Below are positions 43,879 through 61,336 of a stretch of 64,000 bases of DNA, piece after piece. A program made the translations under genes and the position numbers. Below the pieces are notes generated by a model. It searched no databases and had not been told where the DNA came from. It saw only the letters and a list, made by a program, of their open reading frames with translations. The DNA comes from Candidatus Komeilibacteria bacterium (GTDB lineage: Bacteria > Patescibacteriota > Patescibacteriia > UBA1558 > UBA10009). Every line of letters starts with the position of its first letter. Position 1 is the first letter of the stretch. The stretch spans positions 2,845 through 66,844 of the forward strand of contig JAUYIT010000017.1 in the NCBI GenBank assembly GCA_030688315.1, given 5' to 3'.

Positions 43879-44655
43879 ATGAAAACACTTGTATATTTAA
43901 TGGTTTTGTTGGCCGGTTTAACCGGGCTGGGGGCGGGCTGTACTCAAAAGGCCGACTTAAGCTTGATTATGGAACCGGAACCCGAATTACTGGCGGAGGC
44001 CGGTTTAGACGGCCGGGTGGCGGAACAGATGCGCTTAAAGGACCAAATCAGCAAATTGTTGGAATTATCAAGTTCATTGATGGTTGAAATGGAAGCGTCA
44101 GACGCCAAAGCCGGCATAGTAAAAACTGATCTGGTTAAATCCGAGCTGGCCGATAAAATCAACGAGGCCAGGTTAAGCGCGGTTGAGCTGGAGCAGGCCA
44201 GCGGTCCGGACTGGGCAAAAGTTAAAAGCCAAGGCCAGCTGGCCTTAAACGCGTTGGCCGAAACTTATCTTGACTCATTAGTAAAATTCAACCAGAATGT
44301 CGGCGAGGCAAAAAAGATTCAACCGGTTGATCAGGAGGTTAGGATTATGGGTAAAAACGCTTTGGCGGCCCGTTTAAAACAAATCAAGGAAAATCTAGCC
44401 GGCCTGTTGGTGAGGGTGGAGCCCAGAACCAATGGCATGAACCCTGAGGTTCTGGAAGAATGGGATAGGGCCAAGGAAAAATTAGCTGAACAGCTATTCC
44501 TGTCTTACAAAAAAATCAATGAATTATCGTTAAAAAGCGGCAGTTGGGAAAGGTTGTACGTGGCGGCCAAGGATCAGCTAGCTGAGCTAAGCCGGTTATA
44601 CGTCAGCGCCCAAGCCAAGCATGATATTGAGCGCGCCAGCTTAACCATAAAGTGA
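43879..44655 (+). CDS. putative lipoprotein, coiled-coil
   Basis: Signal peptide with the lipobox-like LTGLGAGC, then an Ala/Glu/Lys/Leu-rich helical protein. AAGGAA lies 7 nt upstream of the ATG. Confidence 0.5.
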   Translation: MKTLVYLMVLLAGLTGLGAGCTQKADLSLIMEPEPELLAEAGLDGRVAEQMRLKDQISKLLELSSSLMVEMEASDAKAGIVKTDLVKSELADKINEARLSAVELEQASGPDWAKVKSQGQLALNALAETYLDSLVKFNQNVGEAKKIQPVDQEVRIMGKNALAARLKQIKENLAGLLVRVEPRTNGMNPEVLEEWDRAKEKLAEQLFLSYKKINELSLKSGSWERLYVAAKDQLAELSRLYVSAQAKHDIERASLTIK

Positions 44656-46112: not shown

Positions 46113-47636
46113 ATGCCGATCAAGTTTTCTCGCAAAACATCAGTCAACGGTTATATTAAAGCGCTCTGGATTTTAGGCGCGCTGTTAATAATTGTTTTAG
46201 TTGTGCAAAGCGCCGGTTTGCCTAAAAAATACGGCAGTTTGTTTTTGGAACAGGTTTTTAAACAACCTCTTAAAATCGCGGCCACTTACGCCCAGCTGGT
46301 AGATTCGTTTGATGAAAATTTAACCGTGATTAAATGGCTCGGGGGGTTTGACAAGGAACGGGTTTATCTGGTGTTTTTTCAAAACACCGCGGAATTAAGG
46401 CCCACCGGCGGCTTTTGGGGCAGTTACGGCCTGTTAAAAGTTAAAGATGGCGCCATCACTTCATTGGTCATCGACGATATTTATCATTTGGACGATAAAA
46501 CCGTTAAGGCCCTGCCCCAAAAGCCGCCTCAGCCCCTGGCCGAGCATTTACAGGTCAAACAGTGGTTTATGCGCGATTTAAACTGGTCGCCGGATTTTGC
46601 TCAAACAGCTCGCTTGGCTTTGGCTTTTTACCGTTACTTGGACCCGCGGGGGAGTGTAATTCAAGAATCGCCTCAATCACAACCGTTGCAAGTAGATGGC
46701 GTGATTGCCGTTAACCCCAGTTTTATTTCCGAGCTGTTAAAAAAATACGGTTCGTTGGAAATTGATAATCAGCTTTATGAAGCCGATAATTTTTTGGCTA
46801 AAACCCAGTTTCAAACCAGCATCGGTTTTAGGGAAAAAAGGGTCAGCGATTGGGAGCGCAAGGAATTTTTACAGGAGTTGGCTGATAAGTTAATCGCTAA
46901 AATCGCGGCCACAAGCGGCGGTTTTAGCCTTGATGACTGGAAGGACTGGCAGCATTTTTGGCTGATGAATACGGCTCAAAAAAATCTTTTGCTTTACAGC
47001 GCGGAGCCGAGCATTCAAAGCTTTTTGGTAGCCAAAAATTGGGCGGGCGCTTTAAGGCAAAATCCGACGGGGGATTACCTGATGGTGGCGGACGCCAATC
47101 TGGCCAGCTTAAAAACCGACCCGGAAATTGAACGAAAAATCGTTCATCAAGTGGAGGTCGGCGATATCGGCCATTTGGTGACCACGCAAATTACCTATGT
47201 CCACCACGGACAGTTTGACTGGCGCACCACTCGGTATCGCACTTATGTCAGAGTTTACGTGCCTTTGGGCGTTGAACTTAAATCGGCTACGGTTAAAAAA
47301 GCTAATCAGGATGTTGTTGTTACCGACTCGATTAAGGTCAGTCAGGAACTTAATAAAACCGTGTTTGGCTATTTTTTATCAACCGAACCGCAAAGCGAAC
47401 AGACATTAATTTTGACCTACGTTTTACCTCAAATGGGTCCGGACAATTATTCTTTGCTGGTTCAAAAACAACCCGGAGCGGGCAGGCAAACAATTAGTTT
47501 GGAATACCAGGGTCCTCAAGCTGTGAGCCAGAACAATTGGCCGGGCCAGTATCACTTGAATCAAAATAAATTTATCGGCGACCCCGTGGACTTTGTACAG
47601 GATTTGGAGTTCAACCTGAATTTAGCGGACCGATAA
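46113..47636 (+). CDS. DUF4012-like membrane-anchored protein
   Basis: 507 aa with an N-terminal TM helix. The ELRPTGGFWGSYGLLKV segment resembles the conserved DUF4012 motif. Confidence 0.45.
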   Translation: MPIKFSRKTSVNGYIKALWILGALLIIVLVVQSAGLPKKYGSLFLEQVFKQPLKIAATYAQLVDSFDENLTVIKWLGGFDKERVYLVFFQNTAELRPTGGFWGSYGLLKVKDGAITSLVIDDIYHLDDKTVKALPQKPPQPLAEHLQVKQWFMRDLNWSPDFAQTARLALAFYRYLDPRGSVIQESPQSQPLQVDGVIAVNPSFISELLKKYGSLEIDNQLYEADNFLAKTQFQTSIGFREKRVSDWERKEFLQELADKLIAKIAATSGGFSLDDWKDWQHFWLMNTAQKNLLLYSAEPSIQSFLVAKNWAGALRQNPTGDYLMVADANLASLKTDPEIERKIVHQVEVGDIGHLVTTQITYVHHGQFDWRTTRYRTYVRVYVPLGVELKSATVKKANQDVVVTDSIKVSQELNKTVFGYFLSTEPQSEQTLILTYVLPQMGPDNYSLLVQKQPGAGRQTISLEYQGPQAVSQNNWPGQYHLNQNKFIGDPVDFVQDLEFNLNLADR

Positions 47637-47640
47637 TTTA

Positions 47641-48852
47641 TTAGTAGTAATTTTTTAGAGTGCTGCTGCTGATGGCCTGGGCATAGATGACCATCAGTTT
47701 TTCGTAATATTTGTCGGCACTGTATTGGCGGGAAGCGTTTAAGCTGTTGGTGGATAAATTAACTGTCAGTTTAGGATTAAAATCAAATTGTTTTAAAATA
47801 CCCGGCAGTTCCTGATAGTTGGCAAATAAAAAGCCGTTGTGTTTATGCCTGATCAATTCTTGGAGTCCGCCTACGTTTTTGGCAATCACCGGGGTGCCTA
47901 GGGCCATAGCTTCCAAAACAATGTAGGGGCAGTTTTCGGGCCAGAGCGAGGGAATAATTACGGCTTTGGCGCGGCTGATCATCATTTTTAAGTCAGCATT
48001 GTCCAGGTGTCCTAGTAGCTCAATGTTTTTGTTTATTGGTCCCGTTAAATCGCCACTGCCGGCGATTTTTAAATTCCAGTTTGGGTGGCTGTTAAAAAAA
48101 TCAATCAGCTGGTTAATGCCTTTTTCGGGAGTCAGCCGGCCGGCGTAAAGGTAAAAATTTTCTTTGGGGGCCAAGCTTAACCCCGCGATTTGGGCCGGTA
48201 AAAAATTAGGCAGATGTTTTATTTTGGCGGGATCAAAACCGAATTGGGTAAATTTTTGAGCCAAATAATAACTGGGCGCGATCAACGCGTCGATTTTTTG
48301 GTAAACTTTCCGCTTATAGTTGTAATAGCTTTCTAGCGCGGCTATCCCGCTTTTAACCCAGGACGACTGGTAACAGCGGTGGGTAAAGCAGGCGCCGAAT
48401 TTTTTTCTTAAGGCGGCCTGCCAGCAATCATGTTTAGGGGAGTACAGGTTGTAATTGGGGCTGATCAACTGGTAATCGTGCAAAGTCATTACTTGTGGGA
48501 TTTGTTTTTTAAAAAAGTAATCAATAATGCCCGTACCGATTTGGTAGTTGATGTTGTTTAAATGCGCCAAATCTGGTTGCCACCAGCGGGTTAATTGGTC
48601 AAGCTTGGTTTTTATTTCCGAACGGTAAAAAATTTTGGGCAATTCGGCAATTTTTTGGAGTAAAGGCAGGGCTTCTAAATTATCATGGCCGATAAAAAAA
48701 CTACTGTCGGCGTGTGGCAGGTTAACTGTACTGTTGGCGGCGATAACTCTGACTTCATGGCCCTGATCAGTCAGCATTTTTTCCAACGACAGGACGTATT
48801 TTTCAGCACCGCCCTTAAGGTAGTAAAATTTGTTGACCAATAATATTTTCAT
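47641..48852 (-). CDS. GT4 glycosyltransferase
   Basis: 403 aa with ENCPYIVLEAMALGTPVIAKNVGG E-x7-E motif. Confidence 0.8.
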   Translation of the reverse strand: MKILLVNKFYYLKGGAEKYVLSLEKMLTDQGHEVRVIAANSTVNLPHADSSFFIGHDNLEALPLLQKIAELPKIFYRSEIKTKLDQLTRWWQPDLAHLNNINYQIGTGIIDYFFKKQIPQVMTLHDYQLISPNYNLYSPKHDCWQAALRKKFGACFTHRCYQSSWVKSGIAALESYYNYKRKVYQKIDALIAPSYYLAQKFTQFGFDPAKIKHLPNFLPAQIAGLSLAPKENFYLYAGRLTPEKGINQLIDFFNSHPNWNLKIAGSGDLTGPINKNIELLGHLDNADLKMMISRAKAVIIPSLWPENCPYIVLEAMALGTPVIAKNVGGLQELIRHKHNGFLFANYQELPGILKQFDFNPKLTVNLSTNSLNASRQYSADKYYEKLMVIYAQAISSSTLKNYY

Positions 48853-49948
48853 AGTATAACTTTAAGTACATATTTTCGTGGTGCTTAACGGTTTTTTTAA
48901 TATCAAATTGCTTAAGCGCTTTGCGTCTGGCATTTTTTCTGACTTTTTCCAGAAGGCCGGTTTCCTGGCGTAAATTATTAATCAGCCGAGCCAGGTCCAG
49001 ATAATCGCCGTTTTTGAAAAAAAAGCCGGTTTGATAATCGCTGATTACGCTCATTAAACCGCCGGTTCTGGCGGCAATAACCGGAATGCCGCAGGCCATG
49101 GCCTCGGCCGCCACCAAACCAAAACCTTCCCATTTTGAAGGAATAATTAAAAAATCCAACTGGTGGAAAAAGTCCCTGACTTTTACTCCTGGGGTTTCCC
49201 AAATCAACTGGCGTTGAACGTTTAAATCGGCCGCTAGCTGGGTTAAGGGCTCTTTTAATGATCCTTCGCCCTTAATGATTAAATGCGCCTTAAGGCCCAT
49301 TTTTTTTAGCTCTAGCAGGGCTTTAAAGGCCACCTCATGGCCTTTTTGCTCTTCCAGCCGGCCAAGGATCCCTAGCCGCACAGGATTTTGCGGGCAATAG
49401 TCGTTTTTATAGGGGAAGCGCGAAAAATCAATGCCGTTATGAATGACGGTTATTTTTGATTCTTTAATTTTTTCGTGGCAGATTTGGTAATCTTTGACTT
49501 CGTCGGAAACGGCGATAATTTTATCCGAAACCAAACTTAGAATTTTTTTGAGGATTTTTTTGGACCGGCCTTCATCAAGATTAATGTTATGTTCGGTGGA
49601 AACGATAATCGGTATTTTAGCCAGCCAGGCCGCCAAACGGCCCCAGGTATCGCCGGCAAACAAGTGGGTATGGACCACGGCAATGCGCTGGGCCTGCAGA
49701 TATTTTTTAATTTGCCATAAGGTACCTAGGCCCAGTTTGCTGGTTTTATGGAAAATTTTTACGGTCACGCCTGTTTTGGTAAACCAAGGCAGCAAATCGC
49801 CCGAACCCATTACGGTCAGCAAATGGATCTCGTAGATCTCTTTAGGCAGGTGCTTGATAATATCCAAAACCATTCGTTCGGCGCCGCCCCACGATAAACC
49901 GCAAACAATAAAAGCAAGTTTAATTTTGTCGGGCATTTTTTGTACCAT
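48815..49948 (-). CDS. GT4 glycosyltransferase
   Basis: 377 aa with EGFGLVAAEAMACGIPVIAARTGG E-x7-E motif. Confidence 0.8.
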   Translation of the reverse strand: MVQKMPDKIKLAFIVCGLSWGGAERMVLDIIKHLPKEIYEIHLLTVMGSGDLLPWFTKTGVTVKIFHKTSKLGLGTLWQIKKYLQAQRIAVVHTHLFAGDTWGRLAAWLAKIPIIVSTEHNINLDEGRSKKILKKILSLVSDKIIAVSDEVKDYQICHEKIKESKITVIHNGIDFSRFPYKNDYCPQNPVRLGILGRLEEQKGHEVAFKALLELKKMGLKAHLIIKGEGSLKEPLTQLAADLNVQRQLIWETPGVKVRDFFHQLDFLIIPSKWEGFGLVAAEAMACGIPVIAARTGGLMSVISDYQTGFFFKNGDYLDLARLINNLRQETGLLEKVRKNARRKALKQFDIKKTVKHHENMYLKLYYENIIGQQILLP

Positions 49949-51353
49949 ATATGTTAATTGCGGCCGCTAAAATTCCCAGTGGCAGCCACATTTTGGCGGT
50001 AAAGTATGAAGTAGTAAATAATTGCAGGGTGACGGCGCTGGCCGCGGCAATTAGGGCGTAGCCAATGATAATCTGGCAGGATAAATTTTTTCGCTTAATA
50101 AAGATCTTTATCTTTTTGCCAAAAAACCAGATCAAAAAAATTATAAACGTGGCTAGGCCCAGCCAGCCGGTTTCGGCTAAAATTTTTAACGGCCAGCCGT
50201 GCGCTTCCAGATTGCCGCCAAATTCCCTTACAAAAAACGGATCGCGGTTGATAATTTCCATAAAACTGCCCGGACCCGCTCCTAAATAAGGGCTAAATGA
50301 TAAGGTGTCCCAGCCGATTTGCCATTGCAATAACCGGTTGGTGTTGGATAAACTAACTTCATTGCTGGTTAAAAAGGGGATAGCGATTAGAATTACGACC
50401 AATAAAGTTAACAAAACCGGCCGGGCCAATTTTTTATAAACATTTTTAAGGCGGTTTTTTAAATTGAACTGATGTTTAGCTTCAATGTTTAACAAAATTA
50501 CCGTCAGGCCGATTACCAGTGCTAAGGCCAGCCAGCCGCCCCGGGATAGGGTCAACAAACTGACTAGGCCTATAAAAATTACCGCGGCCAACAGTTTGTT
50601 TTTTAATTTGGGTTGGTAACCTCTTAGTTTTATCAGAATCATACCCAAGGGAATGGCGGGAATCAGTAGTTCCGCCAACAAATTATGATTGCTGCCCAGA
50701 GGGGCGAAGTTGTTTAAAAAAAACGGGGTTAGGCGTGGAATACTGTGCCAGTCAAAATTGTATAAATATTGTAAAAAACTTAAAACCGCTATTAAAAGGC
50801 AAGTAAAGAAATAAATTTTAATCAGGCGGATAAAATGCTGATGTTGGGTAATTACGTTAACGATCAAAAAAATATAGACCAGGTAGCTTAAAATGATAAA
50901 TCTGGTTAAGTATTTTAAACCTTCCGGAATAAAAAAGCTTTGAGTGGCTGAAATTACGGCAATTACCAAAAATAAACCAAACGCGCCTAGCGCGGGCCAG
51001 TTAATTTTTTTTATGGTTTTAAGTTGATTGTGGCCGTAGTTTTCCCTGATGATTTTCCACAACCAGGCTAATAAAATAACTATGCCTAGTAAATCGGCTG
51101 GCGGCGCGCTGACGGTTGAGGTCAAATGGATCTGCCAGTTGATAAAAGGGGAAAGGGCAATTAAAGCCAGAACCGCTTGGGGTAAATAATAGCTTATCCA
51201 GCGCGTAATAAAAATTAACAGCAATAATAGGATTAAAAAGGTTTTTACTTCAGCATTCAAAAAAAATAAAATAAAACTAAATAAAACCAGGCCGATTAAA
51301 ATCAACCAAGTATGTTTGTTAAAAAGGTTTTCCGTAAAATAGTTTGCTAGCAT
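49920..51353 (-). CDS. O-antigen ligase/polymerase-like (Wzy_C) membrane protein
   Basis: 477 aa, about 12 TM helices, with a LSRGGWLALALVIGL loop typical of Wzy_C. Confidence 0.6.
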   Translation of the reverse strand: MLANYFTENLFNKHTWLILIGLVLFSFILFFLNAEVKTFLILLLLLIFITRWISYYLPQAVLALIALSPFINWQIHLTSTVSAPPADLLGIVILLAWLWKIIRENYGHNQLKTIKKINWPALGAFGLFLVIAVISATQSFFIPEGLKYLTRFIILSYLVYIFLIVNVITQHQHFIRLIKIYFFTCLLIAVLSFLQYLYNFDWHSIPRLTPFFLNNFAPLGSNHNLLAELLIPAIPLGMILIKLRGYQPKLKNKLLAAVIFIGLVSLLTLSRGGWLALALVIGLTVILLNIEAKHQFNLKNRLKNVYKKLARPVLLTLLVVILIAIPFLTSNEVSLSNTNRLLQWQIGWDTLSFSPYLGAGPGSFMEIINRDPFFVREFGGNLEAHGWPLKILAETGWLGLATFIIFLIWFFGKKIKIFIKRKNLSCQIIIGYALIAAASAVTLQLFTTSYFTAKMWLPLGILAAAINIYGTKNARQN

Positions 51354-51369
51354 ATGTTTTGAAAAAAAG

Positions 51370-51407
51370 TGCCGACTGAAAGTTGTTGTTGAACAACTTT
51401 CAGTCGG
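51370..51407 (-). terminator. strong rho-independent terminator (17-bp perfect stem) for the minus-strand 3-gene block
   Basis: gccgactgaaagttgtt gttg aacaactttcagtcggc. On the minus strand it is followed by actttttttc. Confidence 0.7.
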
Positions 51408-51437
51408 CTTGATGCTTGCGTGTTCTGCTCAAGATGA

Positions 51438-52247
51438 CTATTCGCCACCAAAGTAGATGGTAATTTCTTCCTGATTCATTAGCCCTGTTGGCTGGGAAAT
51501 TGAACCGTCGGCGTTAAAGGTGTATGATGGCTGGATGATTTCATTGTCATCCAAACTGTACCACCTAACCTGGTAGGTCCCGATGATGTTTTCCGTGTTG
51601 TAGCGCCTGACCAGAGCGTAAATGAGCAGATCTTCAGGATTAAGAGGTTCCTGGTACTGTTCATCCACATCCCGAGACACTACAAAGTATTTACCCGGTA
51701 CACAGCCGAACCAGGCGCCGTGTTCAGATTCGTCCCAGTTGTTAACGGATCCTTGCCAGCGGTCGCTTTGTTCTTGCTGATCCCAGAAAAAGGTAACTTC
51801 GTGAGTTGGACCGGTTACGTCCTGTCGCAAAACCTCTCTGTCTCTGTTGATGCGAAATCTAAAGTAACTGCCGTTGCGGTCAATCTGTTCGTTGGTTAGG
51901 CGCGTGTTGCCGCCGCCAAAGTTGACGTAGATAGTTCTTAGTAGTTCGCCTTGCAGACCTTCGTACTTTAAAGAGACAAAGATCCATGAACCTGTGCGGA
52001 CGCGATAGCCGCCGTTACTTAGCAGTTGATAACTGCTGTATTTGGGATTGGTTATTGATCCCGCGATTACAATCGGCTCGTCGGCCTGATTGATTTCGAT
52101 CGGGTTTCCGTATTTATCCTCGATCAGCAGTTTCATGCCTTCGACCTCGTCCTCCTGCGGCTCCGTGCCCCAGTCGCTTTTGTTGCAACCGGTGGTGGTT
52201 GCGAGTAGGACTGCCAGCATTAGCAGTCCAAGTGTGAATCGTAACAT
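51438..52247 (-). CDS. putative lipoprotein of unknown function (GC-rich island gene 3)
   Basis: Start chosen at MLRFTLGLLMLAVLLATTTGC (signal peptide plus lipobox) with GAGG 8 nt upstream. The ORF track extends to 52346. W/Y/G/R-rich, no recognised family. Confidence 0.45.
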   Translation of the reverse strand: MLRFTLGLLMLAVLLATTTGCNKSDWGTEPQEDEVEGMKLLIEDKYGNPIEINQADEPIVIAGSITNPKYSSYQLLSNGGYRVRTGSWIFVSLKYEGLQGELLRTIYVNFGGGNTRLTNEQIDRNGSYFRFRINRDREVLRQDVTGPTHEVTFFWDQQEQSDRWQGSVNNWDESEHGAWFGCVPGKYFVVSRDVDEQYQEPLNPEDLLIYALVRRYNTENIIGTYQVRWYSLDDNEIIQPSYTFNADGSISQPTGLMNQEEITIYFGGE

Positions 52248-52278
52248 TTTGTTACCTCGTGTTTGGTGTGGTTGGTGG

Positions 52279-52848
52279 TCAATTCGACGGTTTTGAGTAG
52301 AATCTGGAATTTCCACGTCGGTTTTTGGAATCGGGTTCGTTGACATCGGTCAACGTTTGAAGAGGATCAGGGGTCCAGAGCACGCCTGGTCCGTCCGAAA
52401 TTATGATCTGGTAGTCATACAAAATATCGTACCAGATTGGCACGTTATCTATCCCGTATAGACCATTACCCAGGTGGGTGAGTTTGTACCAGCGGTCTTT
52501 GTTCCAATTTAGACCGTACACGTCAATTACGCCATCGGGTTTGGCAAAACGATGACCGGCCAGATAGATTTCCGTTTTGGCCGGGTCAAAACCCGTTACC
52601 AGCGGTTTACCATCGGGAGAGATTCGCACCTTTGTGCGAAAGTCCGAACTTGCCGGAAGTGATTTGTTATCCAGCGCATTTTTTAGGTCATATCGGAACG
52701 TGATTTTGATCACGGGTCCTTCGGTTCCAGTGCCAATTTCACCGAAGGTGATTGAAGCCGGGGTTGCGGGCCGGCTTTGAGCCTGCAGATTGTCCGCTCC
52801 GCTGATTAGCAAAGCGAACGCCAGTGAGAGTGCGTAGAATATACGCAT
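52279..52848 (-). CDS. secreted protein of unknown function (GC-rich island gene 2)
   Basis: 189 aa with signal peptide MRIFYALSLAFALLISGADNLQA. A strong SD (AAGGAG) lies 7 nt upstream. Confidence 0.45.
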   Translation of the reverse strand: MRIFYALSLAFALLISGADNLQAQSRPATPASITFGEIGTGTEGPVIKITFRYDLKNALDNKSLPASSDFRTKVRISPDGKPLVTGFDPAKTEIYLAGHRFAKPDGVIDVYGLNWNKDRWYKLTHLGNGLYGIDNVPIWYDILYDYQIIISDGPGVLWTPDPLQTLTDVNEPDSKNRRGNSRFYSKPSN

Positions 52849-52865
52849 GTTGTTCTCCTTCAGTT

Positions 52866-54239
52866 TTAGTTTTTGATTTCTGTTCGTTTGTAGAACTGGA
52901 AGCCCAGGCAGAATTCAACGCCGACGTATCCGCCGAAGTAGCCGTAGCCGGCTTCTCCGATCAATGATAGCCAATTATCTCTGCCCCAAGGCCTAAAGTA
53001 CTCGATTAATGCTCCCGCTCGGCGGTAAGAGTAATCGGGTTCAAAAGTTTTGCCGCCGCCTTCATGAAAGAATTCGGCGCCAAGATAGATATCACCGCCG
53101 GCCTTGTGCCACATCAAGCGCTCTAAGCGGGCGCGATCCCAAAAGTAACCGTAAAAGTTATTTTGGGGATCTTCGGTCAGCTTAAAGAAGATGAGGCCAA
53201 GTTTCCACTTGCCGCGAATGATAATGGCCTCAAGTTCTGTATCCAGGCCATCATTTTTTCTGCCATCATACCAGCTTTTGCCGGCATTAAAGTAGAAAAT
53301 ATGCAGGGGAATCGGTTCCAGGCGCAAGCCAAGCTTGTAGCCATAGGTTCGATTCATACCCCGGTAGCTGAAGTCGCCCGGGTGGCCAGAGGGATCATAG
53401 CTTGCCTGCCCGCTATTAAAAGCTTTAGCCGACAAACTCAAAATCCTTGAGCAAACCGGATACCAAATAACTCTACCGCCAGGAATCTGGAGGTAAGGAT
53501 AGTTGCCTACTATTCCCGTAGAGTTATAAAATTCCATCTCCCACCTTAAACATTCCTTGATCTGCGGTGTAAACACCGGCGGTTCAATGAATGTGGATAT
53601 AGCGGGTTTGGGTACAATTACTGGCGGTGGAGGTGGCGGAGCCACATAGACAAAAAAGGTTTCTCGGGCGGTTTTTGACCACCCGATGTTGTTGCACGCC
53701 TTAAAGTGAAGCAACGTCCAAGTGGTTTTGCTTACCACCCAGCCGCTATCCACCCTAAGTGAGTCCGTTTGCCAGACCAGATAGGCCACTGCCCACAGTT
53801 TCTGGTCAGGAATATTGATCCAGGCGCAAACAACGCTGTCCTTGATATCACGGACGGTTCCGTCATCCCTTAACCCAAACGATAGCTGTTCCAAATAGCC
53901 ACCGTTGGGGATGGAGACGGAATCGATCGCTTGGCTATGCGCCAGATGGGTGATAAACCCTCTGGTTTCCGCCTCGGGGTATCTTTCCACTCGACCCAGT
54001 TCGCTTAACTGGTCTTTGGCGTTTTTAGGCGCGTAAGGCAAGTCGGGCGCGTCCAGGCCGATGGCTAGGCACCATTCGGCTTTGATTTGCGGCGGCACGC
54101 GCAAGTTTCTGACCTCGGCTACGCCCAGGCCGGATTTGTTGCCGCCAACTACTTTCCAGGGGTAAAGCTTTGCTTCAGCTGTTGACCCAAGAAAGGCCAA
54201 AGCCAGGCAAACCAGTCCTCCTGTTTTTAGAACTTTCAT
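52866..54239 (-). CDS. secreted protein with poly-proline linker and beta-barrel-like aromatic-rich C-terminal domain (GC-rich island gene 1)
   Basis: 457 aa with a signal peptide and a PPPPPPVIVPKP linker. The C-terminal 200 aa have alternating hydrophobic/aromatic patterns (GYGYFGGYVGVEFCLGFQF). GAGGA lies 5 nt upstream. Confidence 0.45.
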   Translation of the reverse strand: MKVLKTGGLVCLALAFLGSTAEAKLYPWKVVGGNKSGLGVAEVRNLRVPPQIKAEWCLAIGLDAPDLPYAPKNAKDQLSELGRVERYPEAETRGFITHLAHSQAIDSVSIPNGGYLEQLSFGLRDDGTVRDIKDSVVCAWINIPDQKLWAVAYLVWQTDSLRVDSGWVVSKTTWTLLHFKACNNIGWSKTARETFFVYVAPPPPPPVIVPKPAISTFIEPPVFTPQIKECLRWEMEFYNSTGIVGNYPYLQIPGGRVIWYPVCSRILSLSAKAFNSGQASYDPSGHPGDFSYRGMNRTYGYKLGLRLEPIPLHIFYFNAGKSWYDGRKNDGLDTELEAIIIRGKWKLGLIFFKLTEDPQNNFYGYFWDRARLERLMWHKAGGDIYLGAEFFHEGGGKTFEPDYSYRRAGALIEYFRPWGRDNWLSLIGEAGYGYFGGYVGVEFCLGFQFYKRTEIKN

Positions 54240-54435
54240 GGGTTCCTCGCTTTCTGGATTGTTTTTGGTGAGTTGATCGCTTTAACTATCTCCTAGACAC
54301 GCTAAGAAATAGTTTAGCAACCAACTCAATGTCAATGTGCTTTTTGCGCGTAGTAAAAAATAAAATTTTACCGCCCGCAAATGGCGCATTGGAAGTTTTA
54401 TGCATAATTGCAATTTAATGAAAATTACCGCCTTA

Positions 54436-55044
54436 TCATTTTAAAGACCGGTTAAAATTCAAGTAAATATGAAGATAGGCCAAAGCCAGGCCAGTTAGCC
54501 CCGCAAGGATTAAATTTAAAAGAAAATTGGGACGGGCCGGATAACGCGAGGAAAGGGGAGGGTTAACCAGTTTTAGGCGGATGTTTTCGCCTCCGCCATG
54601 AAACTCATCGCCTTGTGCCAGTAGGGTTTGGATAATGGCATAATTAAGATTGACCGCGTTTTGCGGCACCGGGTCATAAACGCTTATTTCCAGCAAGGAA
54701 TTAACGGCCCTAGCTTCAACTTTTCTTTCCCATTGCTGTCTTTTTTTAGCTTCATCAACCTCTAAAAAATTTAAAGGCACAATGGGCTGGGTTTCCTGCA
54801 AAACAGCCACAAATGAAGCGGTGCCGATAATTTCGGCCAGATTTTGGCTTAATTTTTCGGAAGCGCGCGCCGCCGAATACGCGTCCAAATTGGGCAAAAT
54901 TTTATGAATTACCAAAATTTGCGAATTAGCCCGGTATTCCAACGGCTGCAGCAAAGTTAAACCAACCGCTAAAACAGCTGCGATCAACGGATAAACCAGG
55001 TAAATCCTCCACCAATTCCTGTTAGGTTCTAAAAATTCGCTCAT
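54436..55044 (-). CDS. short polysaccharide co-polymerase (Wzz/chain-length determinant)-like protein
   Basis: 202 aa with TM helices at both ends, a soluble middle domain and a proline-rich PPLSSRYPARP motif before TM2 as in PCP proteins. Confidence 0.45.
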   Translation of the reverse strand: MSEFLEPNRNWWRIYLVYPLIAAVLAVGLTLLQPLEYRANSQILVIHKILPNLDAYSAARASEKLSQNLAEIIGTASFVAVLQETQPIVPLNFLEVDEAKKRQQWERKVEARAVNSLLEISVYDPVPQNAVNLNYAIIQTLLAQGDEFHGGGENIRLKLVNPPLSSRYPARPNFLLNLILAGLTGLALAYLHIYLNFNRSLK

Positions 55045-55069
55045 ATTAGATAAAAATCTTTACAATTTC

Positions 55070-55097
55070 ATTTTACACTTAATGTATATATTGTCAA
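55070..55097 (-). promoter_or_regulatory. sigma70-like promoter (TTGACA, 16-nt spacer, TAAAAT) for the Wzz-like gene
   Basis: The hexamers are read on the minus strand in the divergent intergenic region. Confidence 0.35.
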
Positions 55098-55108
55098 ATA
55101 AGTAACTT

Positions 55109-55137
55109 TTGTACATTTTATCAATTTGCGCTATACT
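55109..55137 (+). promoter_or_regulatory. sigma70-like promoter (TTGTAC, 17-nt spacer, TATACT) with a leader of about 125 nt for the 55269 GT gene
   Basis: Good hexamers with ideal spacing. The long GC-containing leader has unknown structure. Confidence 0.4.
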
Positions 55138-55268
55138 AACTTCAGTGGCGATCCGGGTAAAAATGCGGTCGGCCCGATAATGGCTAAGGTAGGCGGTTAT
55201 AAGGTAAAAGTTTTGGGGTTAAGCGTGATTTAAGTAAAAACAAGCATAAAATTTAGAGTGTATAAGCT

Positions 55269-56438
55269 GTGTATATGATAAATAAAACAATTGCCATTTT
55301 AGGCCACCGGGGGATTCCGGCCAGTTACGGCGGGTTTGAAACGCTGGCGGCTGAAATTAGCCCTTTACTAGCGCAACATGGGCTGATTGTGACTAATTAC
55401 TGTCGCGGCTACTTAAACACGGGTTTAAAATCCTATCTGGGTAGCCGCTTGATTTATTTACCGGCTTGGCGGTTTAAATCGTTGGAAACCTTAAGCCATA
55501 CTTTTTTTGCTACTATCCACTTATACCTGCATCCAACCGATTGCGCTCTAGTGCTTAACGTGGGTAATGCCTTGTTTGCCTGGCTGTTAAAATTAAGGGG
55601 GATTAAGGTTTTACTCAATGTGGACGGCCTAGAATGGCGACGAAAAAAATGGGGACCGCCCGCTCGCGCTTATTTTAAATTTTCCGCCTGGCTGGCCACT
55701 AAGGCGGCTCACGCTTTAATTACCGATTCGGAACAGGTTAAAAACTTTTATTTAAAAAGATTCAATAAAGAAAGTTTAATGATTCCTTACGGCGCTACAC
55801 AGGCGGAAACCGAAAATGATCAGGAAATATTGGCTGAATACGGGCTGGAACCCAAAAAGTACTTCTTATTTTTAGCCAGGTTTGAACCGGAGAATAATCC
55901 TTTGCTGGTCAGGCAGGCCTATGAAAAATCAGCGACCAAAATGCCTATAGTAATGGTGGGCGACGCGCCTTACGCTCAAAATTATATTAGCCGCGTTAAA
56001 AAAACCGCTGACCAGCGGGTAAAATTTTTAAGCGCGGTTTACGGGGCTAAAGCCAAAGTTTTAATGAAGAACGCCCTGGCCTATATCCGGGCCAGTGAAG
56101 TGGGCGGGATTTCTCCGGCTTTAGTGGAAACTATGGGATTAGGAACTTGCGTAATTGCCAATGACACCGGGGCCAATCATCAAGCCGCCGGCGCTGACGG
56201 CATTTACTACCAATTAGGCGACGGTTCATTGACTGAAATTCTGGATTTTATTTCCATAAATCCTCATTTGGCCGTTGACTTAGGTGTAAAACTCAAAAAA
56301 ACCGCCAGAATCAAATTTGCCTGGCCTAAAATAGCCGAACAATATTTTAAATTAATCAATTCGGTCGTGGCGCCGGATAAGGCGGTTTCCGTCAAAGCGA
56401 TTCCTAAATCGCCCTTACGCCAGGCATCAAGAACCTAA
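55269..56438 (+). CDS. GT1/GT4-type glycosyltransferase with DUF1972-like N-terminal domain
   Basis: 389 aa. The N-terminus IAILGHRGIPASYGGFET resembles the DUF1972 domain and the C-terminus is a GT-B glycosyltransferase half. Confidence 0.6.
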   Translation: MYMINKTIAILGHRGIPASYGGFETLAAEISPLLAQHGLIVTNYCRGYLNTGLKSYLGSRLIYLPAWRFKSLETLSHTFFATIHLYLHPTDCALVLNVGNALFAWLLKLRGIKVLLNVDGLEWRRKKWGPPARAYFKFSAWLATKAAHALITDSEQVKNFYLKRFNKESLMIPYGATQAETENDQEILAEYGLEPKKYFLFLARFEPENNPLLVRQAYEKSATKMPIVMVGDAPYAQNYISRVKKTADQRVKFLSAVYGAKAKVLMKNALAYIRASEVGGISPALVETMGLGTCVIANDTGANHQAAGADGIYYQLGDGSLTEILDFISINPHLAVDLGVKLKKTARIKFAWPKIAEQYFKLINSVVAPDKAVSVKAIPKSPLRQASRT

Positions 56439-56449
56439 CCCAAATTTAT

Positions 56450-57451
56450 ATGGTTAATAATAAATCCAGCAATAAGATATTAATTACCGGCGCCGGCGGC
56501 ATGCTTGGCCAGTCGGTCTACCGGCATTTTTCCAAAAACAATCAGGTTTGGGCCACGGATATTGATTTAAACGAGTGGTGGCTGGAATATTTGGACGTTA
56601 AAAATTTTGCCAGTTATGAAAATTGGGTCAGAAAAACAAAACCCGACTATATTTTTCATCTGGCCGCCGAAACCGATCTGGAAAAATGCGAAACAAATCA
56701 GTCCGAAGCCCTGGGCAATAATTTTTTAGGCGTTAAAAACGGTGCTTTAATTGCCAAAAAATACGGGATTAAATTTATTTATACTTCAACGGCCGGCGTG
56801 TTTGGCGGCGGCCAGGCCAGTTTTACCGAGCAAGATCGGCCCTGTCCGCTTAATTTTTACGCCAAAACCAAATATTGGGGCGAACTAGCTGTGCAATCAA
56901 CTTTGCGGGATTATTTAATTATCAGACCCGGTTGGATGATGGGCGGCGGCCAGGCCAAAGATAAAAAATTTATTTCTAAAATTATCAAAAAAATCTCCTT
57001 GGGTGAAACGGAGCTTAAAATTGTGGATGACCGCCAGGGCACGCCCACTTACACCGAGGATTTGGCTAAAAATTTGGATTTACTGCTTAATAAAAATCAG
57101 CGCGGTTTGTGGCATATGGTTAATCAGGGCAGTTGTTCGCGCTTTGAGGTGGCTCAAGCCATGGTTGAAGAGCTTGGATACGCGGAACAAATAAAAGTAA
57201 CTAAGGTCAAATCCGATTACTATCAAAAAGAATATTTTGCCGCGCGGCCTGATTCGGAAGCGCTGGTTAACCGCCGGCTGATAGATAACAATTTGCTGTT
57301 AATGAATCATTGGCGGGTTGCCGTTAAGAGTTATTTAAAAAATGATTTTACATCCTATTACGCTAAATCCGCGCCAACTTTATATCGGTTGGTCAATAAA
57401 ATGAGTTTAAACAAAAAAACGTCTTTTAAAAAAAACGTTTTTACCACCTAG
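56450..57451 (+). CDS. RmlD-like NAD(P)-dependent sugar-nucleotide reductase/epimerase (SDR)
   Basis: 333 aa with ILITGAGGMLGQSV and an RmlD substrate-binding-like fold. Confidence 0.6.
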   Translation: MVNNKSSNKILITGAGGMLGQSVYRHFSKNNQVWATDIDLNEWWLEYLDVKNFASYENWVRKTKPDYIFHLAAETDLEKCETNQSEALGNNFLGVKNGALIAKKYGIKFIYTSTAGVFGGGQASFTEQDRPCPLNFYAKTKYWGELAVQSTLRDYLIIRPGWMMGGGQAKDKKFISKIIKKISLGETELKIVDDRQGTPTYTEDLAKNLDLLLNKNQRGLWHMVNQGSCSRFEVAQAMVEELGYAEQIKVTKVKSDYYQKEYFAARPDSEALVNRRLIDNNLLLMNHWRVAVKSYLKNDFTSYYAKSAPTLYRLVNKMSLNKKTSFKKNVFTT

Positions 57452-57461
57452 CCAATAATCC

Positions 57462-57785
57462 TTATTGCTGCGGCGTTGAGGTGGGGGAGATGATTATTTC
57501 GGGCGATTCTTCTTCCTGGCTGAAAATTCTAAAAGGATTATGATTAATGGTTAGGGTGCTGGTGGAGTTTTGCGCTTGGGCCAGCCAATTTTCCAAATCC
57601 CGGGCGTTGTTTATATCCACCTGTTTGACGGAAACGTATTCCAAAAGGCCGCTGACCTGGTCGGACATAATTTTTGTTTCACCGCGCTTGGCATAAGCGC
57701 TAAAAACCAGCCAACCGGCCGAAAGCAAAATCAGGCCGGTAAACGAAAGCAGTAAAAAATGGTAGGCGATTGTAATTTTTTTCAT
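57462..57785 (-). CDS. small membrane-anchored protein at the PilP position of the pilMNO operon
   Basis: 107 aa with an N-terminal TM helix. It is the last gene after pilO and is assigned by context only. Confidence 0.35.
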   Translation of the reverse strand: MKKITIAYHFLLLSFTGLILLSAGWLVFSAYAKRGETKIMSDQVSGLLEYVSVKQVDINNARDLENWLAQAQNSTSTLTINHNPFRIFSQEEESPEIIISPTSTPQQ

Positions 57786-57792: not shown

Positions 57793-58335
57793 TTATCTTA
57801 ACCAATAGGTATTTATCAGCAGCATTGCTTCTATCTGTCCGGCGCTTTCAGTTAAAACTTTGGGTTTTACGGTTACTGAATCAACGGTCAGCTGAAAATT
57901 TAATTTTTCCAGTTCAGAGAGATAAGCGATCAGATCGGAAAACTGGCCCGTTAATTTGGCGCTTAAACCAAGTTGATCAATCTTTTCCGACCAGGCCTGG
58001 TAATCCTGACCCAAAGTAAGTTCCTGATCAAGTTGATATTTTGCGGCGATTGCTTCCAGCTGTTTAATCAACTCCAGTTCCTGGCCGCGGGGCATAAGCA
58101 ATTCGGCGGGCACGGGTAGTTTTTCGCTGAATTGCTGCCAATCCAGCGTGGCCTTGGTAAAACTATTGCCCTGCTCGCTGTTTGCTTCCAAATTGGCAAT
58201 TTCGGCTTTGACTGTTGCGTGAAATTTATTGATTTTGCCTAAAATCGGCCGATCGTAAATTAAAACAACCAAAACCAGCAGCAAGCTTATTACGCTTATT
58301 TTAACGGTTTCGGATTGGTTAAAAATCTTTTTCAT
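57793..58335 (-). CDS. pilO: type IV pilus assembly protein PilO-like
   Basis: 180 aa with an N-terminal TM helix and coiled coil, downstream of pilN. Confidence 0.55.
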   Translation of the reverse strand: MKKIFNQSETVKISVISLLLVLVVLIYDRPILGKINKFHATVKAEIANLEANSEQGNSFTKATLDWQQFSEKLPVPAELLMPRGQELELIKQLEAIAAKYQLDQELTLGQDYQAWSEKIDQLGLSAKLTGQFSDLIAYLSELEKLNFQLTVDSVTVKPKVLTESAGQIEAMLLINTYWLR

Positions 58336-58856
58336 CGTTTTAATTTACCTGTGATTTGAAAAGTAACCTCGTCCTTTTGTAAATAGTTTTCCAAAGGAGA
58401 ATCAATTTCCTCAAAAAAGGACGACCCGTTTAGCTTATTTTGAAAAACAATCAAAGCGTCGCGGGTTTTAGCAAAACCCTTAAGGGTAAAAATACCGTTG
58501 GAGGCAGAACCGTTAAATTCCAGCAGGGCAATTTCGGCGGGTGCCAGGCCGGCCAGTTCATTAATGGTCGCGCTCCAGCTGTAAAGCTGGTTTTTTATTT
58601 TAATCAAATCGCCGATTTCAGAATTAAGAACGTTTATTTTTTCGGTCAGTTCGGAGTTGCTGGCTAAAATCGCCGTTTTTAGGGCCTCATTAGCCAGTTG
58701 CTGGCCGTTGATTTGCTGGTCCAAGGGAATTAACCAGATTGCCGTTACCACCGCGGCCAGCAATAAAACACCGGCGCAATTTTTTATCAGCGTTTGCCAA
58801 TATTTAAGCTTTAGATTATGTTGTTGTTCCGGTGAAATCAGGTTTAAGGAAATCAT
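58332..58856 (-). CDS. pilN: type IV pilus assembly protein PilN-like
   Basis: 174 aa, of which residues 1-20 are cytoplasmic, followed by a TM helix and a periplasmic domain. It overlaps pilO by 4 nt. Confidence 0.6.
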   Translation of the reverse strand: MISLNLISPEQQHNLKLKYWQTLIKNCAGVLLLAAVVTAIWLIPLDQQINGQQLANEALKTAILASNSELTEKINVLNSEIGDLIKIKNQLYSWSATINELAGLAPAEIALLEFNGSASNGIFTLKGFAKTRDALIVFQNKLNGSSFFEEIDSPLENYLQKDEVTFQITGKLKR

Positions 58857-58859
58857 AAA

Positions 58860-59900
58860 CTAGGGGTAAAATTGCCTTAAGGCCAGGCCGATGGCCGCGT
58901 TGTAAGATTGGATTTTATCTTCGGTCAGGGATAATTTTCCCATGGTCAGGTTAACCAGCGGATTGCCGATAACAACTTCCGTTTGCGTTTGCTCGGCCAG
59001 GTTTTCCGCCAGGTTTTTTAAACTGGAACCGTTGCCGGTCAAAATTATTTTGGAAATAAGGCCCTGCGGCTCTACGTGTTCGGCGTAAAAATATTTGGCT
59101 TCGCGGATTTCTTCCGCTAATTTGGCAATAACGGGCGCCAGAATTTTTTTGACTCCGCCTTGGGCCAAATCATTGCTTAAGCCGATTTTTCTTTTGGCCG
59201 TTTCCGCCTCCTCCAAGCTCAAGTTTAAACTGCTTTTTAGCAGTTTAGTCAGTTCATTGGAGGCAAAAGCCACCGATAAGTTGGCAACGATGTTGTTTTT
59301 TTTGTAAATAAACAAGCCGGTCCGGCTAAAACCCAAGTCAATCACCATTGTGGCTTGATCAATTTGTTGATTAGGTTTAAACAAAGCCCGCGCCAAAGAC
59401 ATGCTTTCCACTTCCAGCACCGCCGGCGTCAAGCCGGCACTGCTTAAAACAGTTTGAAAATTATCCACGATTTCTTTGGGGCAAACCGCGATAATCGCCT
59501 TGTTTTTGGAGGCGTCGGTAAATTGCCAATCAAGATAGGTTTTTTCCAGCGGATAGGGAATGTGGTTTTTGGCTTCGGCAATAACCTCCTCCACCGCGTT
59601 TTTATTTTTAGGGTAGGTTAAGTTAATTATTTTAATAAAGGTTTTGGGTTCAGGCAAACAGGCGGCAACGTAATGCGAAGACGATTTTGCTCCCACTACG
59701 TTTTGCAAAAGTTTTTTAAACAGCGCCACCGCCTTTTCCTGGCTGGCAAATTTACCGTCCTTAATTATGCCGGGCGGAACGCTGATTTCGCCGTAAGCGT
59801 CCAAAAACAGCTGGCCGCCGTTTTTTTTAAGACGGGCCAATCTAAAACAGCGTTCGCTGATATCCAGGCCAAAAGAATTTTGAATAAAGTTTGCCAGCAT
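58860..59900 (-). CDS. pilM: type IV pilus assembly protein PilM (actin-like ATPase fold)
   Basis: 346 aa. GLDISERCFRLARLKKNGG and an overall ASKHA-fold pattern are typical of PilM. Confidence 0.8.
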   Translation of the reverse strand: MLANFIQNSFGLDISERCFRLARLKKNGGQLFLDAYGEISVPPGIIKDGKFASQEKAVALFKKLLQNVVGAKSSSHYVAACLPEPKTFIKIINLTYPKNKNAVEEVIAEAKNHIPYPLEKTYLDWQFTDASKNKAIIAVCPKEIVDNFQTVLSSAGLTPAVLEVESMSLARALFKPNQQIDQATMVIDLGFSRTGLFIYKKNNIVANLSVAFASNELTKLLKSSLNLSLEEAETAKRKIGLSNDLAQGGVKKILAPVIAKLAEEIREAKYFYAEHVEPQGLISKIILTGNGSSLKNLAENLAEQTQTEVVIGNPLVNLTMGKLSLTEDKIQSYNAAIGLALRQFYP

Positions 59901-59940
59901 CTACTAGTTAATTAATTAATATATTATACCATATCTTACT

Positions 59941-61164
59941 CTAATATTCTTCTTCCCAATGGTTGACGTTGATTAAGGGCGAGGCAGCGGACAAACCTAG
60001 GGTTCTAAATACCCGGTTGGCATTGTAGTTGACGGATATGGCCTCCCATAAACTGCTTAAGGAAAAATTTCTGGCATAAACCGCTCCGCTGACGCTAAAA
60101 TCAAGGCCGCTGGCCGTTACGGTTATATCGCTATTGGCGTAAATAACCCCGTTAACGCTGATTTGGCTGGCATAACTGCCGATGTTAATATCGTGTTTGG
60201 CAAACAAGCCGACCGGTCCGTTGCCCGGATCGCTTAAGGAAACCGAGGCCTTATTAAGCCAATACGGCCACCAGCTGGTGCCGATGTTGATATTGTTTTT
60301 AGCGGCCAAAAAGCCGCTGACGCTGACCGTGGAACCGCGCGGTACGGTTATTTCGCCCTTTACGTAAACAGAGCCGTTTAAAACCAAATTGGGATTATCG
60401 GCCAGTAAATCTGCAAATTGATTTTGCGTGTAAACAAAATCGGCCTGATTAAGAAGTGAGTCGGGATCATTGGAGTCAAAGTCCAGTTGGGGCATGCTTA
60501 CGGTATCCGGCCGCGGCGGATAATTTTTAGCCAGTATTTCTTCAGCGTTAAGTTCGGAAAGCCAGGAAACGCTGACGTTATTAAAAGCCAGGGCTTTTTT
60601 GTCCACGTTTAAAACGCTGAAAAAATCCAGGTTAATTTGGTTGTTGGAAAAAACCGCGCTATCGTTGACCGACAAATTGGCGCCGCTTAAATCAAAGTTG
60701 TTGTTGGTAAAAACGCCGATTGAAGATGTGGCGGTTTCGCCTTGGGCCTGAAAAATAGTGGTTTTAACCACGCGCCGCGAAGTTTGGGCGCCGACCGTAA
60801 TGGTGCCGGTAGCGTGGATAACGGCTTCGCCCGCCAGCACGTTTTTAACGCCGACTTCGTATGATTGGCCGGTAACAAACAAATCTTCGCGCTCTATGGC
60901 GGCCTGCCAGGCGGGGTTGTTTTTAAAGTTATCGTTCCAGACCGGGTCGTGGTTGATTTTCCAAATGGCTTCCTGAACCCCGGCTTCGGTTAAATAATAA
61001 GTTTGGGCGGCTAAAATGTGGCTCTTGGCGATTTTTCTTTCGCTGATTATAAAATCAAAAAAATAATTCAACAGCAAAACCAGGCCCGACATGACAATCA
61101 TGACCAGGATGAGCACCGTTCCTTGCGGCTGATTTTTATGTGTAGAATTCATTCTCATTAGCAT
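59941..61164 (-). CDS. pilus-associated protein, PilX-like (N-terminal hydrophobic segment)
   Basis: 407 aa with an N-terminal TM helix (GTVLILVMIVMSGLVLL) but no canonical G-F/T-x-x-E prepilin cleavage site. It lies between pilM and the pseudopilin genes. Confidence 0.4.
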   Translation of the reverse strand: MLMRMNSTHKNQPQGTVLILVMIVMSGLVLLLNYFFDFIISERKIAKSHILAAQTYYLTEAGVQEAIWKINHDPVWNDNFKNNPAWQAAIEREDLFVTGQSYEVGVKNVLAGEAVIHATGTITVGAQTSRRVVKTTIFQAQGETATSSIGVFTNNNFDLSGANLSVNDSAVFSNNQINLDFFSVLNVDKKALAFNNVSVSWLSELNAEEILAKNYPPRPDTVSMPQLDFDSNDPDSLLNQADFVYTQNQFADLLADNPNLVLNGSVYVKGEITVPRGSTVSVSGFLAAKNNINIGTSWWPYWLNKASVSLSDPGNGPVGLFAKHDINIGSYASQISVNGVIYANSDITVTASGLDFSVSGAVYARNFSLSSLWEAISVNYNANRVFRTLGLSAASPLINVNHWEEEY

Positions 61165-61336
61165 GGATTTAGTTCCGACAAAATTATTATTTTTTTCGCC
61201 TCATGAAGATGGGCAACAACAACTTTCTGTTCAAGTTAGCCAAACGCTCACGATCATCCTTTGTTGATTCAAGTCAGTCGCGCTGCAGGACACTCGGCTT
61301 CAAAAAACAATAACTTTGCCGGAACTACCTCTTCAA

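Follow-up and report, generated by a model that had tools for sequence, protein, structure and literature searches.

A syntenic, Shine-Dalgarno-led three-gene envelope operon encoding a predicted 12-stranded beta-barrel in a surface-glycan locus of Candidatus Komeilibacteria

Anatomy of the operon and its three products

The DNA investigated here is a 64-kb contig stretch, in the following called the window, from Candidatus Komeilibacteria (Parcubacteria group of the Patescibacteria or Candidate Phyla Radiation, CPR). Within it we analysed three adjacent minus-strand genes, A, B and C (together the triad; Table 1), which an earlier note on this DNA had presented as a likely foreign island or a chimeric assembly. 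The block has its own leader, three genes each led by a Shine-Dalgarno (SD) sequence, and a strong terminator. The SDs are located 4–7 nt 5' of the respective ATGs. Among the 58 open reading frames (ORFs) compared in the window, that is the triad and 55 others, their duplex energies with the anti-SD sequence rank third (A, -8.1 kcal/mol), first (B, -9.2 kcal/mol) and fourth (C, -7.3 kcal/mol). The median of the window is -1.3 kcal/mol and a value of -6 is reached by only six of the 58 ORFs, which bears out the earlier statement that strong SDs precede all three starts and are rare elsewhere. The longest ORF of gene C opens at position 52346. However, its true start is almost certainly the ATG at 52247, because an SD and a signal peptide are found there and homologues agree with it. 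Rfam reports no element in or around the block, leader included, and when homologous leaders were compared the SD was the sole conserved element. The terminator is identical in a second strain (L003) from another sample.

Sec-type signal peptides are evident at the N-termini of all three products. These, the lipobox in one of them, the hexa-proline linker and the perfect-stem terminator had already been pointed out and are all present. Equally, as in the earlier note, no family was recognised for the proteins: searches of A, B and C against Pfam and NCBIfam gave nothing significant for the window proteins. The NCBI entries for A and B are hypothetical proteins of a Candidatus Komeilibacteria bacterium metagenome-assembled genome (MAG), and one relative is recorded as 'Patescibacteria group bacterium'.

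Protein A was modelled with AlphaFold2 (AF2), for which eight family members were aligned; residue numbers in the model are lower by one than those of the protein. In the C-terminal part the model shows twelve long antiparallel strands, with block values of the predicted local distance difference test (pLDDT) mostly between 80 and 94. Foldseek supports the reading of this region as a barrel; the structural alignments with autotransporter barrels have a sequence identity of 5–13%. The strands of the N-terminal domain were predicted at moderate confidence (pLDDT about 55–79), and signal peptide, insertions and linker at low confidence. In its alignment the N-terminal domain has invariant W, G, C and N columns; it has no significant family match, the best being ZoocinA_TRD at E 0.12.

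The alignment of nine family A sequences agrees with a barrel. One face of the strands carries nearly invariant Glu, Arg, Lys, Gly and Tyr; the opposite face varies among Leu, Ile, Val, Phe, Ala, Trp and Tyr and has aromatic or charged residues at its borders. Such a two-faced pattern is typical of barrels that sit in a membrane and have a polar lumen. On the lumen side conserved Glu, Arg, Lys and Gly make up a dense network, and the modelled barrel may be plugged or narrow. The last strand bears Y-x-G-x-E-F-x-[FL], which we take, as a lead only, to resemble the C-terminal beta-signal of substrates of the beta-barrel assembly machinery (BAM). One cysteine is invariant (in ACNN) and another one, in the first barrel strand, is found in eight of the nine sequences; judged from these positions, the two could clamp the linker loop. 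In two homologues, P0011 and P0012, an SdrD_B/Cna-B-type domain is inserted in the linker. None of the nine members matches the Autotransporter beta-domain (PF03797 or related) in Pfam at E <= 1, the window protein has no match in NCBIfam, and the family profile finds no match among PDB sequences at E <= 10. Family A is thus predicted to be an outer-membrane-type, autotransporter-like barrel belonging to no known sequence family, which supports and sharpens to twelve strands the earlier suggestion of an undescribed extracytoplasmic module with a beta-barrel.

For protein B a profile of seven sequences was compared with the PDB and gave a carbohydrate-binding region of pullulanase (E 0.039) and the starch-binding domain of glucoamylase (E 0.72). 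In Pfam, AMPK1_CBM (3.8e-4) and CBM53 (0.0096) were each found in one of the seven homologues, while window B has no match. These matches to domains of the carbohydrate-binding module (CBM) type are convergent yet below proof; B appears to be a secreted protein with a possible CBM20/48/53-like glycan-binding beta-sandwich. Protein C, with its signal peptide and a lipobox (..LLATTTG before the Cys) whose Cys is invariant in seven homologues, qualifies as a predicted beta-rich bacterial lipoprotein. It has homologues at 86% and 44% identity. Relatives outside the syntenic loci were not detected among 5.8 billion clusters, and a PDB profile search returned chance antibody matches only. The AF2 model of C, from a three-sequence alignment, has a pLDDT of 34.7.

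Table 1. Features of the triad and of its immediate neighbourhood (window coordinates)
Feature	Position	Strand	Remarks
Promoter-like TTGACA-16-TAAAAT	55097-55070	minus	5' of the Wzz-like gene
Wzz/polysaccharide co-polymerase (PCP)-like gene	54436-55044	minus	202 aa, two transmembrane (TM) segments; conserved partner 5' of the triad
Leader of the triad	54240-54435	minus	196 bp, intergenic, read from sequence; weak hairpin then T-run, TTGACA hexamer 54335-54330, SD GAGGA 54248-54244
SD of A	54244-54248	minus	GAGGA
Gene A	52866-54239	minus	457 aa
A, signal peptide	54171-54239	minus	aa 1-23, MKVLKTGGLVCLALAFLGSTAEA; homologues with equivalent N-termini
A, N-terminal beta-rich globular domain	53652-54170	minus	aa about 24-196; ends in conserved HFxxCNNxGW
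A, proline-rich linker	53562-53651	minus	aa about 197-226, including PPPPPP
A, predicted 12-stranded transmembrane-type beta-barrel	52878-53561	minus	aa about 227-454
SD of B	52855-52860	minus	AAGGAG
Gene B	52279-52848	minus	189 aa, secreted; start 17 nt past A
SD of C	52254-52258	minus	GAGGT
Gene C	51438-52247	minus	269 aa, predicted lipoprotein; start 31 nt past B
Intrinsic terminator	51371-51408	minus	17-bp perfect stem, 4-nt loop, T-run; closes the operon
Wzy_C polymerase/ligase	49920-51353	minus	Pfam
Glycosyltransferase family 4 (GT4) genes	48815-49948 and 47641-48852	minus	Pfam; 3' of Wzy_C

Assembly integrity, gene order and relatives

The suspicion of a chimeric assembly did not hold. 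A Logan assembly of SRR13727534 is 100% identical over window positions 47362–57628; the chimera is refuted because this independent assembly runs identically over both junctions of the block. With strain L003 the window is colinear (85% nucleotide identity) over a stretch that extends from within B, across C and the terminator, into Wzy; the same arrangement is found in at least eight other assemblies (ENA, JGI, NCBI, Logan). Likewise a recent foreign island is not supported, because related genomes carry syntenic, SD-led homologues of all three genes at the same position. Around the block no integrase or mobility genes, bounding repeats or ends of mobile elements were found, and four-fold-site GC is 0.58 in the triad versus 0.65 in its flanks. 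Judged as a genomic island, the block shows the atypical composition; patchy presence, borders with mobility genes, tRNAs or repeats, and a donor-like four-fold bias were not found. The nearest tRNA is 10 kb away; this tRNA-Gln(UUG) (41958–42031, plus strand) is the window's only RNA gene, with no rRNA or riboswitch above the Rfam thresholds.

The gene order Wzz-like, A, B, C, in some loci a radical-SAM gene, Wzy_C, GT4, GT4 is found in seven distinct loci (window, L002, L004/L011, L006/L007, L009, L010, L013); the contigs of L002 and L010 begin inside gene A and hence are without the Wzz-like gene. L005/L014, L008 and the P0010 contig hold only the upstream part, Wzz-like followed by A. A Wzz-like gene of about 205 aa is located directly 5' of every family A member with readable upstream context. 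In the window it has host-like composition and no SD, and its similarity to Pfam Wzz is weak (E 0.019, 15.7 bits at a cut-off of 25.5), as is a match to TIGR03007. The Pfam match is likewise weak in two homologues, and hydrophobic N- and C-termini are visible in the alignment.

Family A is rare: at E <= 1e-3 only eight clusters were found among 1.84 billion representative proteins, all of them in this gene context. In a word-indexed search of 5.8 billion clusters, A and B retrieve only themselves and C retrieves three relatives. The viral contigs scanned gave no family A match, nor did the genome contigs scanned with family A patterns; a scan of genome contigs with the Wzz-like profile retrieved the L005 genome and a single distant locus, nothing else. 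Compared with the window proteins, identity is 34–51% for A (35–66% in the barrel part), about 26–38% for B where at least 40 residues align, and 20–46% for C across the syntenic loci. For the flanking genes the corresponding values are 38–66% (Wzy), 48–58% (GT4) and 41–49% (Wzz-like, for which the homologues directly 5' of A were also put at 38–42%).

Some loci differ in detail. The radical-SAM gene between C and Wzy (L004:3665-4633, L009:3715-4191, L013:8147-9115) has host-like composition and is absent from this position in the window, L002, L006 and L010. L013 has one extra small lipoprotein gene in the locus. Between B and C of L006 (3319-3494, same in L007) a GC-rich hairpin with a T-run is located, which may be an internal attenuator or terminator; gene C restarts there with AAGGAGG and a TTG start codon missed by the gene caller. 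A 20-nt direct repeat, 95% identical, joins the signal-peptide part of A (54189–54208) and the C-terminal TM segment of the Wzz-like gene (54472–54491). Both copies encode ..LALA.L.., and the repeat is probably chance or convergent hydrophobic coding. In the contig JAZDGP010000032.1 ('MAG: bacterium'; L015:6080-10755) the order is DUF4012, Wzz-like, glycosyltransferase, a second Wzz-like gene and four SD-led genes for secreted proteins or lipoproteins. One of the products (402 aa) combines a signal peptide with a Pro-rich linker and a C-terminal half rich in beta structure. Homology to family A is not detectable (hhalign probability 5%); possibly this is an analogue of the module.

The window as a whole is a CPR envelope region with many glycosyltransferases, DUF4012, an S8 and an S41 protease, type IV pilus genes and two Wzy_C genes, one at 3971–6385 (plus strand) fused to TPR repeats and the other at 49920–51353 (minus strand). 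With a PMT_2 glycosyltransferase in addition, a very large share of the 64 kb is given to surface glycans. The type IV pilus cluster (57793–63944, minus strand) comprises a PilO-like gene, likely PilN (by position), PilM, a DUF7305-like gene, three small pilin-like genes and, by comparison with L012, a PilC-like T2SSF gene. No secretin was seen among the window genes examined, in agreement with published descriptions of CPR.

Composition, codon usage and translation signals

The higher GC content of the triad is real (0.494 in C, 0.495 in B and 0.509 in A, against about 0.43 for the window). The other 55 ORFs lie mostly between 0.38 and 0.48, and the immediate flanks at 0.39–0.45 and not at 0.35–0.40, as had been estimated before. 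The tetranucleotide analysis that had been proposed as a check places the block as the strongest outlier of the window (z 5.5). Sliding 2.8-kb windows across it give z 4.1–4.3, and the next best region, which is unrelated, 2.0. The GC excess sits mostly in codon positions 1 and 2 and hence in the amino-acid composition; GC3 is only 0.53–0.57, compared with a typical 0.45–0.55 in the window. In line with the unusual composition described earlier, the fraction of Lys, Ile, Leu and Asn is 0.24–0.29, versus about 0.28–0.42 in the other proteins, and Gly, Trp and Tyr are high.

These traits recur in the relatives. In all eight loci for which DNA is available the triad was compared with its own flank genes, and it has the higher GC in every one: L002 (0.485–0.515, flanks 0.35–0.39 with one flank gene at 0.45), L004 (0.44–0.48, flanks 0.28–0.32), L005 (0.485–0.54, flanks 0.38–0.44), L010 (0.37–0.44, flanks 0.29–0.36), L013 (0.50–0.54, flanks 0.37–0.42) and, with a small difference, L009 (0.44–0.47, flanks 0.40–0.44) are examples. 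Over 22 triad starts the SD energy has a median of -7.7 kcal/mol, over 37 flank genes one of -0.6 kcal/mol (Mann-Whitney p = 1.3e-8); where a triad value is weak, which is seldom, the start looks mis-called. For comparison, the anti-SD motif was found in only 48% of Parcubacteria (PMC9297842); were it missing here, the retained SDs would call for some other explanation.

Synonymous sites also carry a signature. In two-fold NNY boxes the triad exceeds its flanks in C/(C+T) in 8/8 loci (for instance 0.56 versus 0.37 in the window and 0.58 versus 0.24 in L002), and the fraction of A at four-fold sites is higher in seven of the eight. Of the 58 window ORFs, the triad genes hold ranks 1, 2 and 5 in NNC and ranks 2, 3 and 7 in four-fold A. 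In four-fold-site GC, on the other hand, the triad falls below its flanks in three loci, the window, L006 and L009. The bias is therefore codon-specific, NNC over NNT and A at four-fold sites, without a general GC excess. Between the window and L003, dS is 0.39–0.67 and dN/dS is 0.13 for B and 0.11 for C; therefore purifying selection acts on these genes, while their synonymous sites turn over quickly. Two explanations were rejected: the dN/dS of about 0.1 speaks against pseudogenes or decaying foreign DNA, and since four-fold GC is not raised in three of the eight loci, neither a GC-rich donor nor GC-biased gene conversion is accepted as the only cause.

The odd composition thus has three sources: an envelope-type amino-acid make-up, a codon preference and retained SDs. 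The make-up, with Gly, Trp, Tyr, Arg and Asp up and Lys, Ile and Asn down, is typical of beta-barrel and beta-sandwich envelope proteins and accounts for the raised GC1 and GC2. A preference for NNC together with NNA is the usual outcome of translational selection, NNC being cognate to GNN and NNA to UNN anticodons. If a GC-rich donor had left a passive relic, or if GC-biased conversion were at work, four-fold GC should be raised and the bias should decay with time. What is seen is a preference for NNC and NNA, from which, together with the SDs, we infer selection for efficient translation. Since codon preference and SDs persist across lineages whose synonymous sites are saturated, they appear to be held by selection, most simply for an efficient translation of abundant envelope proteins.

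Three further genes are of note in this respect. At 43879–44655 (plus strand) an orphan ORF with a signal peptide, the SD-like TAAGGA, the third highest NNC (0.53), GC 0.48 and no Pfam match is the sole other window gene with part of the triad signature. In L013 (1725-3014), just 5' of the Wzz-like gene, a secreted protein with a Por_Secre_tail domain (type IX secretion system-type C-terminal domain) is encoded by a gene with a triad-like signature (GC 0.51, GC3 0.59, SD-like TGGAGA). The signature may mark a class of secreted proteins in these genomes, beyond the triad. The window's second GC-rich spot (7093–9162, plus strand; gene GC 0.489, Gly 10%) encodes a subtilase (Peptidase_S8) carrying FG-GAP repeats, and as it has neither an SD nor a special codon bias, amino-acid composition alone can raise GC here.

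Function, origin and significance

From these data we favour, with reasonable though by no means full confidence, the explanation that the block is a vertically kept, strongly translated, lineage-specific envelope operon of bacteria related to Komeilibacteria, placed within a Wzy-dependent surface-glycan locus. In this operon A, B and C would form an extracytoplasmic complex, with the barrel of A as its anchor in a lipid layer that lies beyond the cytoplasmic membrane. The Wzz-like protein and Wzy would be its partners, and with them it might export, anchor or display the polysaccharide of the locus, or use it for attachment to host cells.

A number of known systems would be comparable to the triad in the way they work. 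Type Va autotransporters (Hbp, BrkA, NalP, AIDA-I) have a C-terminal 12-stranded outer-membrane beta-barrel as is also predicted in A. However, A matches neither Pfam Autotransporter (PF03797) nor, at E <= 10, any PDB sequence, its linker is Pro-rich with no predicted helix instead of an alpha-helix in the barrel lumen, its N-terminal part is a beta domain of about 170 aa and not a beta-helix passenger, and it comes from CPR, which have no known outer membrane or BAM complex. The KdgM/NanC oligosaccharide porins, the COG4313 channels and FapF are small 12-stranded barrels too; these consist of the barrel only, whereas A has in addition an N-terminal domain and a proline linker, and again no sequence-family match exists. 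The tethers of OmpM/SlpA and OmpA type in diderm Terrabacteria, which are abundant envelope proteins, combine like A a non-barrel domain, an extended spacer and an outer-membrane barrel in one polypeptide. A lacks an SLH or OmpA_C domain and its barrel is 12-stranded; the OmpM barrel is larger than that. In its setting the triad resembles Wzx/Wzy export machinery (PCP proteins Wzz/Wzc, outer-membrane polysaccharide export (OPX) protein Wza, Wzi barrel lectins): a PCP-like protein with two TM segments is located 5', Wzy and glycosyltransferases 3', and between them, as in a Wzy-dependent export setting, a predicted lipoprotein, a predicted barrel and a possible glycan-binding protein. Unlike in those systems, however, A, B and C have no Poly_export/OPX (PES) domain and no match to Wzi or Wza in Pfam and NCBIfam, the PCP similarity of the Wzz-like protein is below the Pfam threshold, and the lineage is thought to have no outer membrane. 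By analogy, the triad would stand beside the autotransporter, small-porin and tether classes as a member of none.

Several points speak against the explanation of a vertically kept operon. The window contains no rRNA (Rfam) and no ribosomal-protein or EF-Tu genes which could serve as a codon or anti-SD reference, and other plausibly well-expressed genes in it (pilin-like, MetK, CTP synthase) show neither SD nor codon bias. The proposed role in glycan export or anchoring draws on the gene neighbourhood and on weak CBM and PCP similarities. CPR are reported to be without an outer membrane and its machinery (PMC6744442; PMC11809585), so that the barrel has no obvious home or insertase. Furthermore, the divergence of the triad correlates poorly with that of the flanks (Spearman -0.48 to 0.33): L006 and L008 share 75% identity in the Wzz-like protein and 31% in the barrel. 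Such discordance fits fast evolution and also an exchange of cassettes, by which a recombining surface-antigen cassette would be swapped among related CPR via the Wzz-like and Wzy flanks, as at capsule or O-antigen loci, its composition being that of the cassette pool. The nearly flat pairwise identities of the triad (about 30–40%) and the GC spread among loci, narrower for the triad (0.37–0.54) than for the flanks (0.28–0.47), would also agree with this. However, the two closest comparable flank pairs are also closest in the triad (window and L002, 66% in the barrel and 66% in Wzy; L005 and L006, 57% in the barrel and 60% in the flank), saturation is equally expected from fast-evolving exposed proteins, a recombination-driven GC bias would lift four-fold GC, which is not so in three of the eight loci, and triad GC partly tracks the host, being lowest in L004 and L010. 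We regard such exchange as quite unlikely.

The same four-fold sites bear on an ancient capture, in which an ancestor of the clade would have acquired a three-gene envelope cassette from a diderm, possibly its host, with SDs and GC as unameliorated traits of the donor. The diderm-like content (an outer-membrane-type barrel, a lipoprotein), strong SDs in SD-poor genomes and the position of the triad as the clearest compositional outlier of the window would suit a capture. Yet searches of 1.84 billion representatives, 5.8 billion clusters, PDB, Pfam, NCBIfam and viral contigs found homologues only within the syntenic CPR loci, four-fold GC is not elevated in three of the eight loci, mobility genes and repeats are absent, and with synonymous sites saturated among lineages (dS 0.4–0.7 already between the two closest strains) a passive relic should have decayed; this origin is therefore unlikely. 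Very improbable, in our view, is a host-directed device, that is a barrel secreted into the outer membrane of a diderm host as pore or anchor, with B and C as accessories for adhesion or glycan binding; no membrane of the CPR cell would then house the barrel. It would explain a transmembrane-type barrel in a lineage reported as single-membrane, and CPR are described as host-dependent epibionts; adhesin-stalk inserts of the Cna-B/SdrD_B type in two family members and a fast sequence evolution as for interface proteins would be in keeping with it. However, the triad is linked tightly and without exception to Wzz/Wzy glycan genes of the cell itself, which suggests a role in the cell's own envelope, C as a predicted lipoprotein would be tethered to the membrane of the producer, and no case is known to us in which one bacterium delivers a 12-stranded barrel made of a single chain to another. 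Finally, contaminating DNA of higher GC joined into a CPR contig would have only the compositional jump in its favour and, against the identical independent assembly, the colinear strain from elsewhere and the further assemblies described above, its probability is practically negligible.

A may be a genuine membrane-embedded barrel, in which case the clade would either have an unrecognised outer lipid layer, whose anchoring or export complex would consist of the barrel, the lipoprotein and a glycan-binding protein, or would deliver the barrel into the outer membrane of a host; we consider this possible but rather doubtful. CPR are also reported to be without PilQ and TonB systems and to have a Gram-positive-like single-membrane envelope (PMC6744442; PMC8871954; PMC11809585), and in our literature search we came across no published beta-barrel or autotransporter-like family from Patescibacteria. 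In the light of both, a conserved barrel operon is unexpected.

CPR or Patescibacteria constitute a large share of bacterial diversity and are taken, on genomic grounds and a few images, to be single-membrane bacteria without outer-membrane proteins. This assumption feeds arguments on the evolution of one- versus two-membrane bacteria, and a conserved barrel operon wired into a glycan locus is a concrete target for testing it. The operon may also bear on how CPR epibionts build or use their surface. As SD-led initiation and distinct codons are preserved in just three genes, in lineages whose remaining genes have neither, the triad offers a natural case for studying SD-independent translation in CPR, and it cautions against taking every compositional 'island' for foreign DNA. 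If A is indeed embedded in a membrane, CPR would gain their first described beta-barrel membrane protein system, expressed via a conserved private signature of SDs and NNC/NNA codons in genomes otherwise without SDs. The interest of the finding lies in the membrane that would house the barrel.

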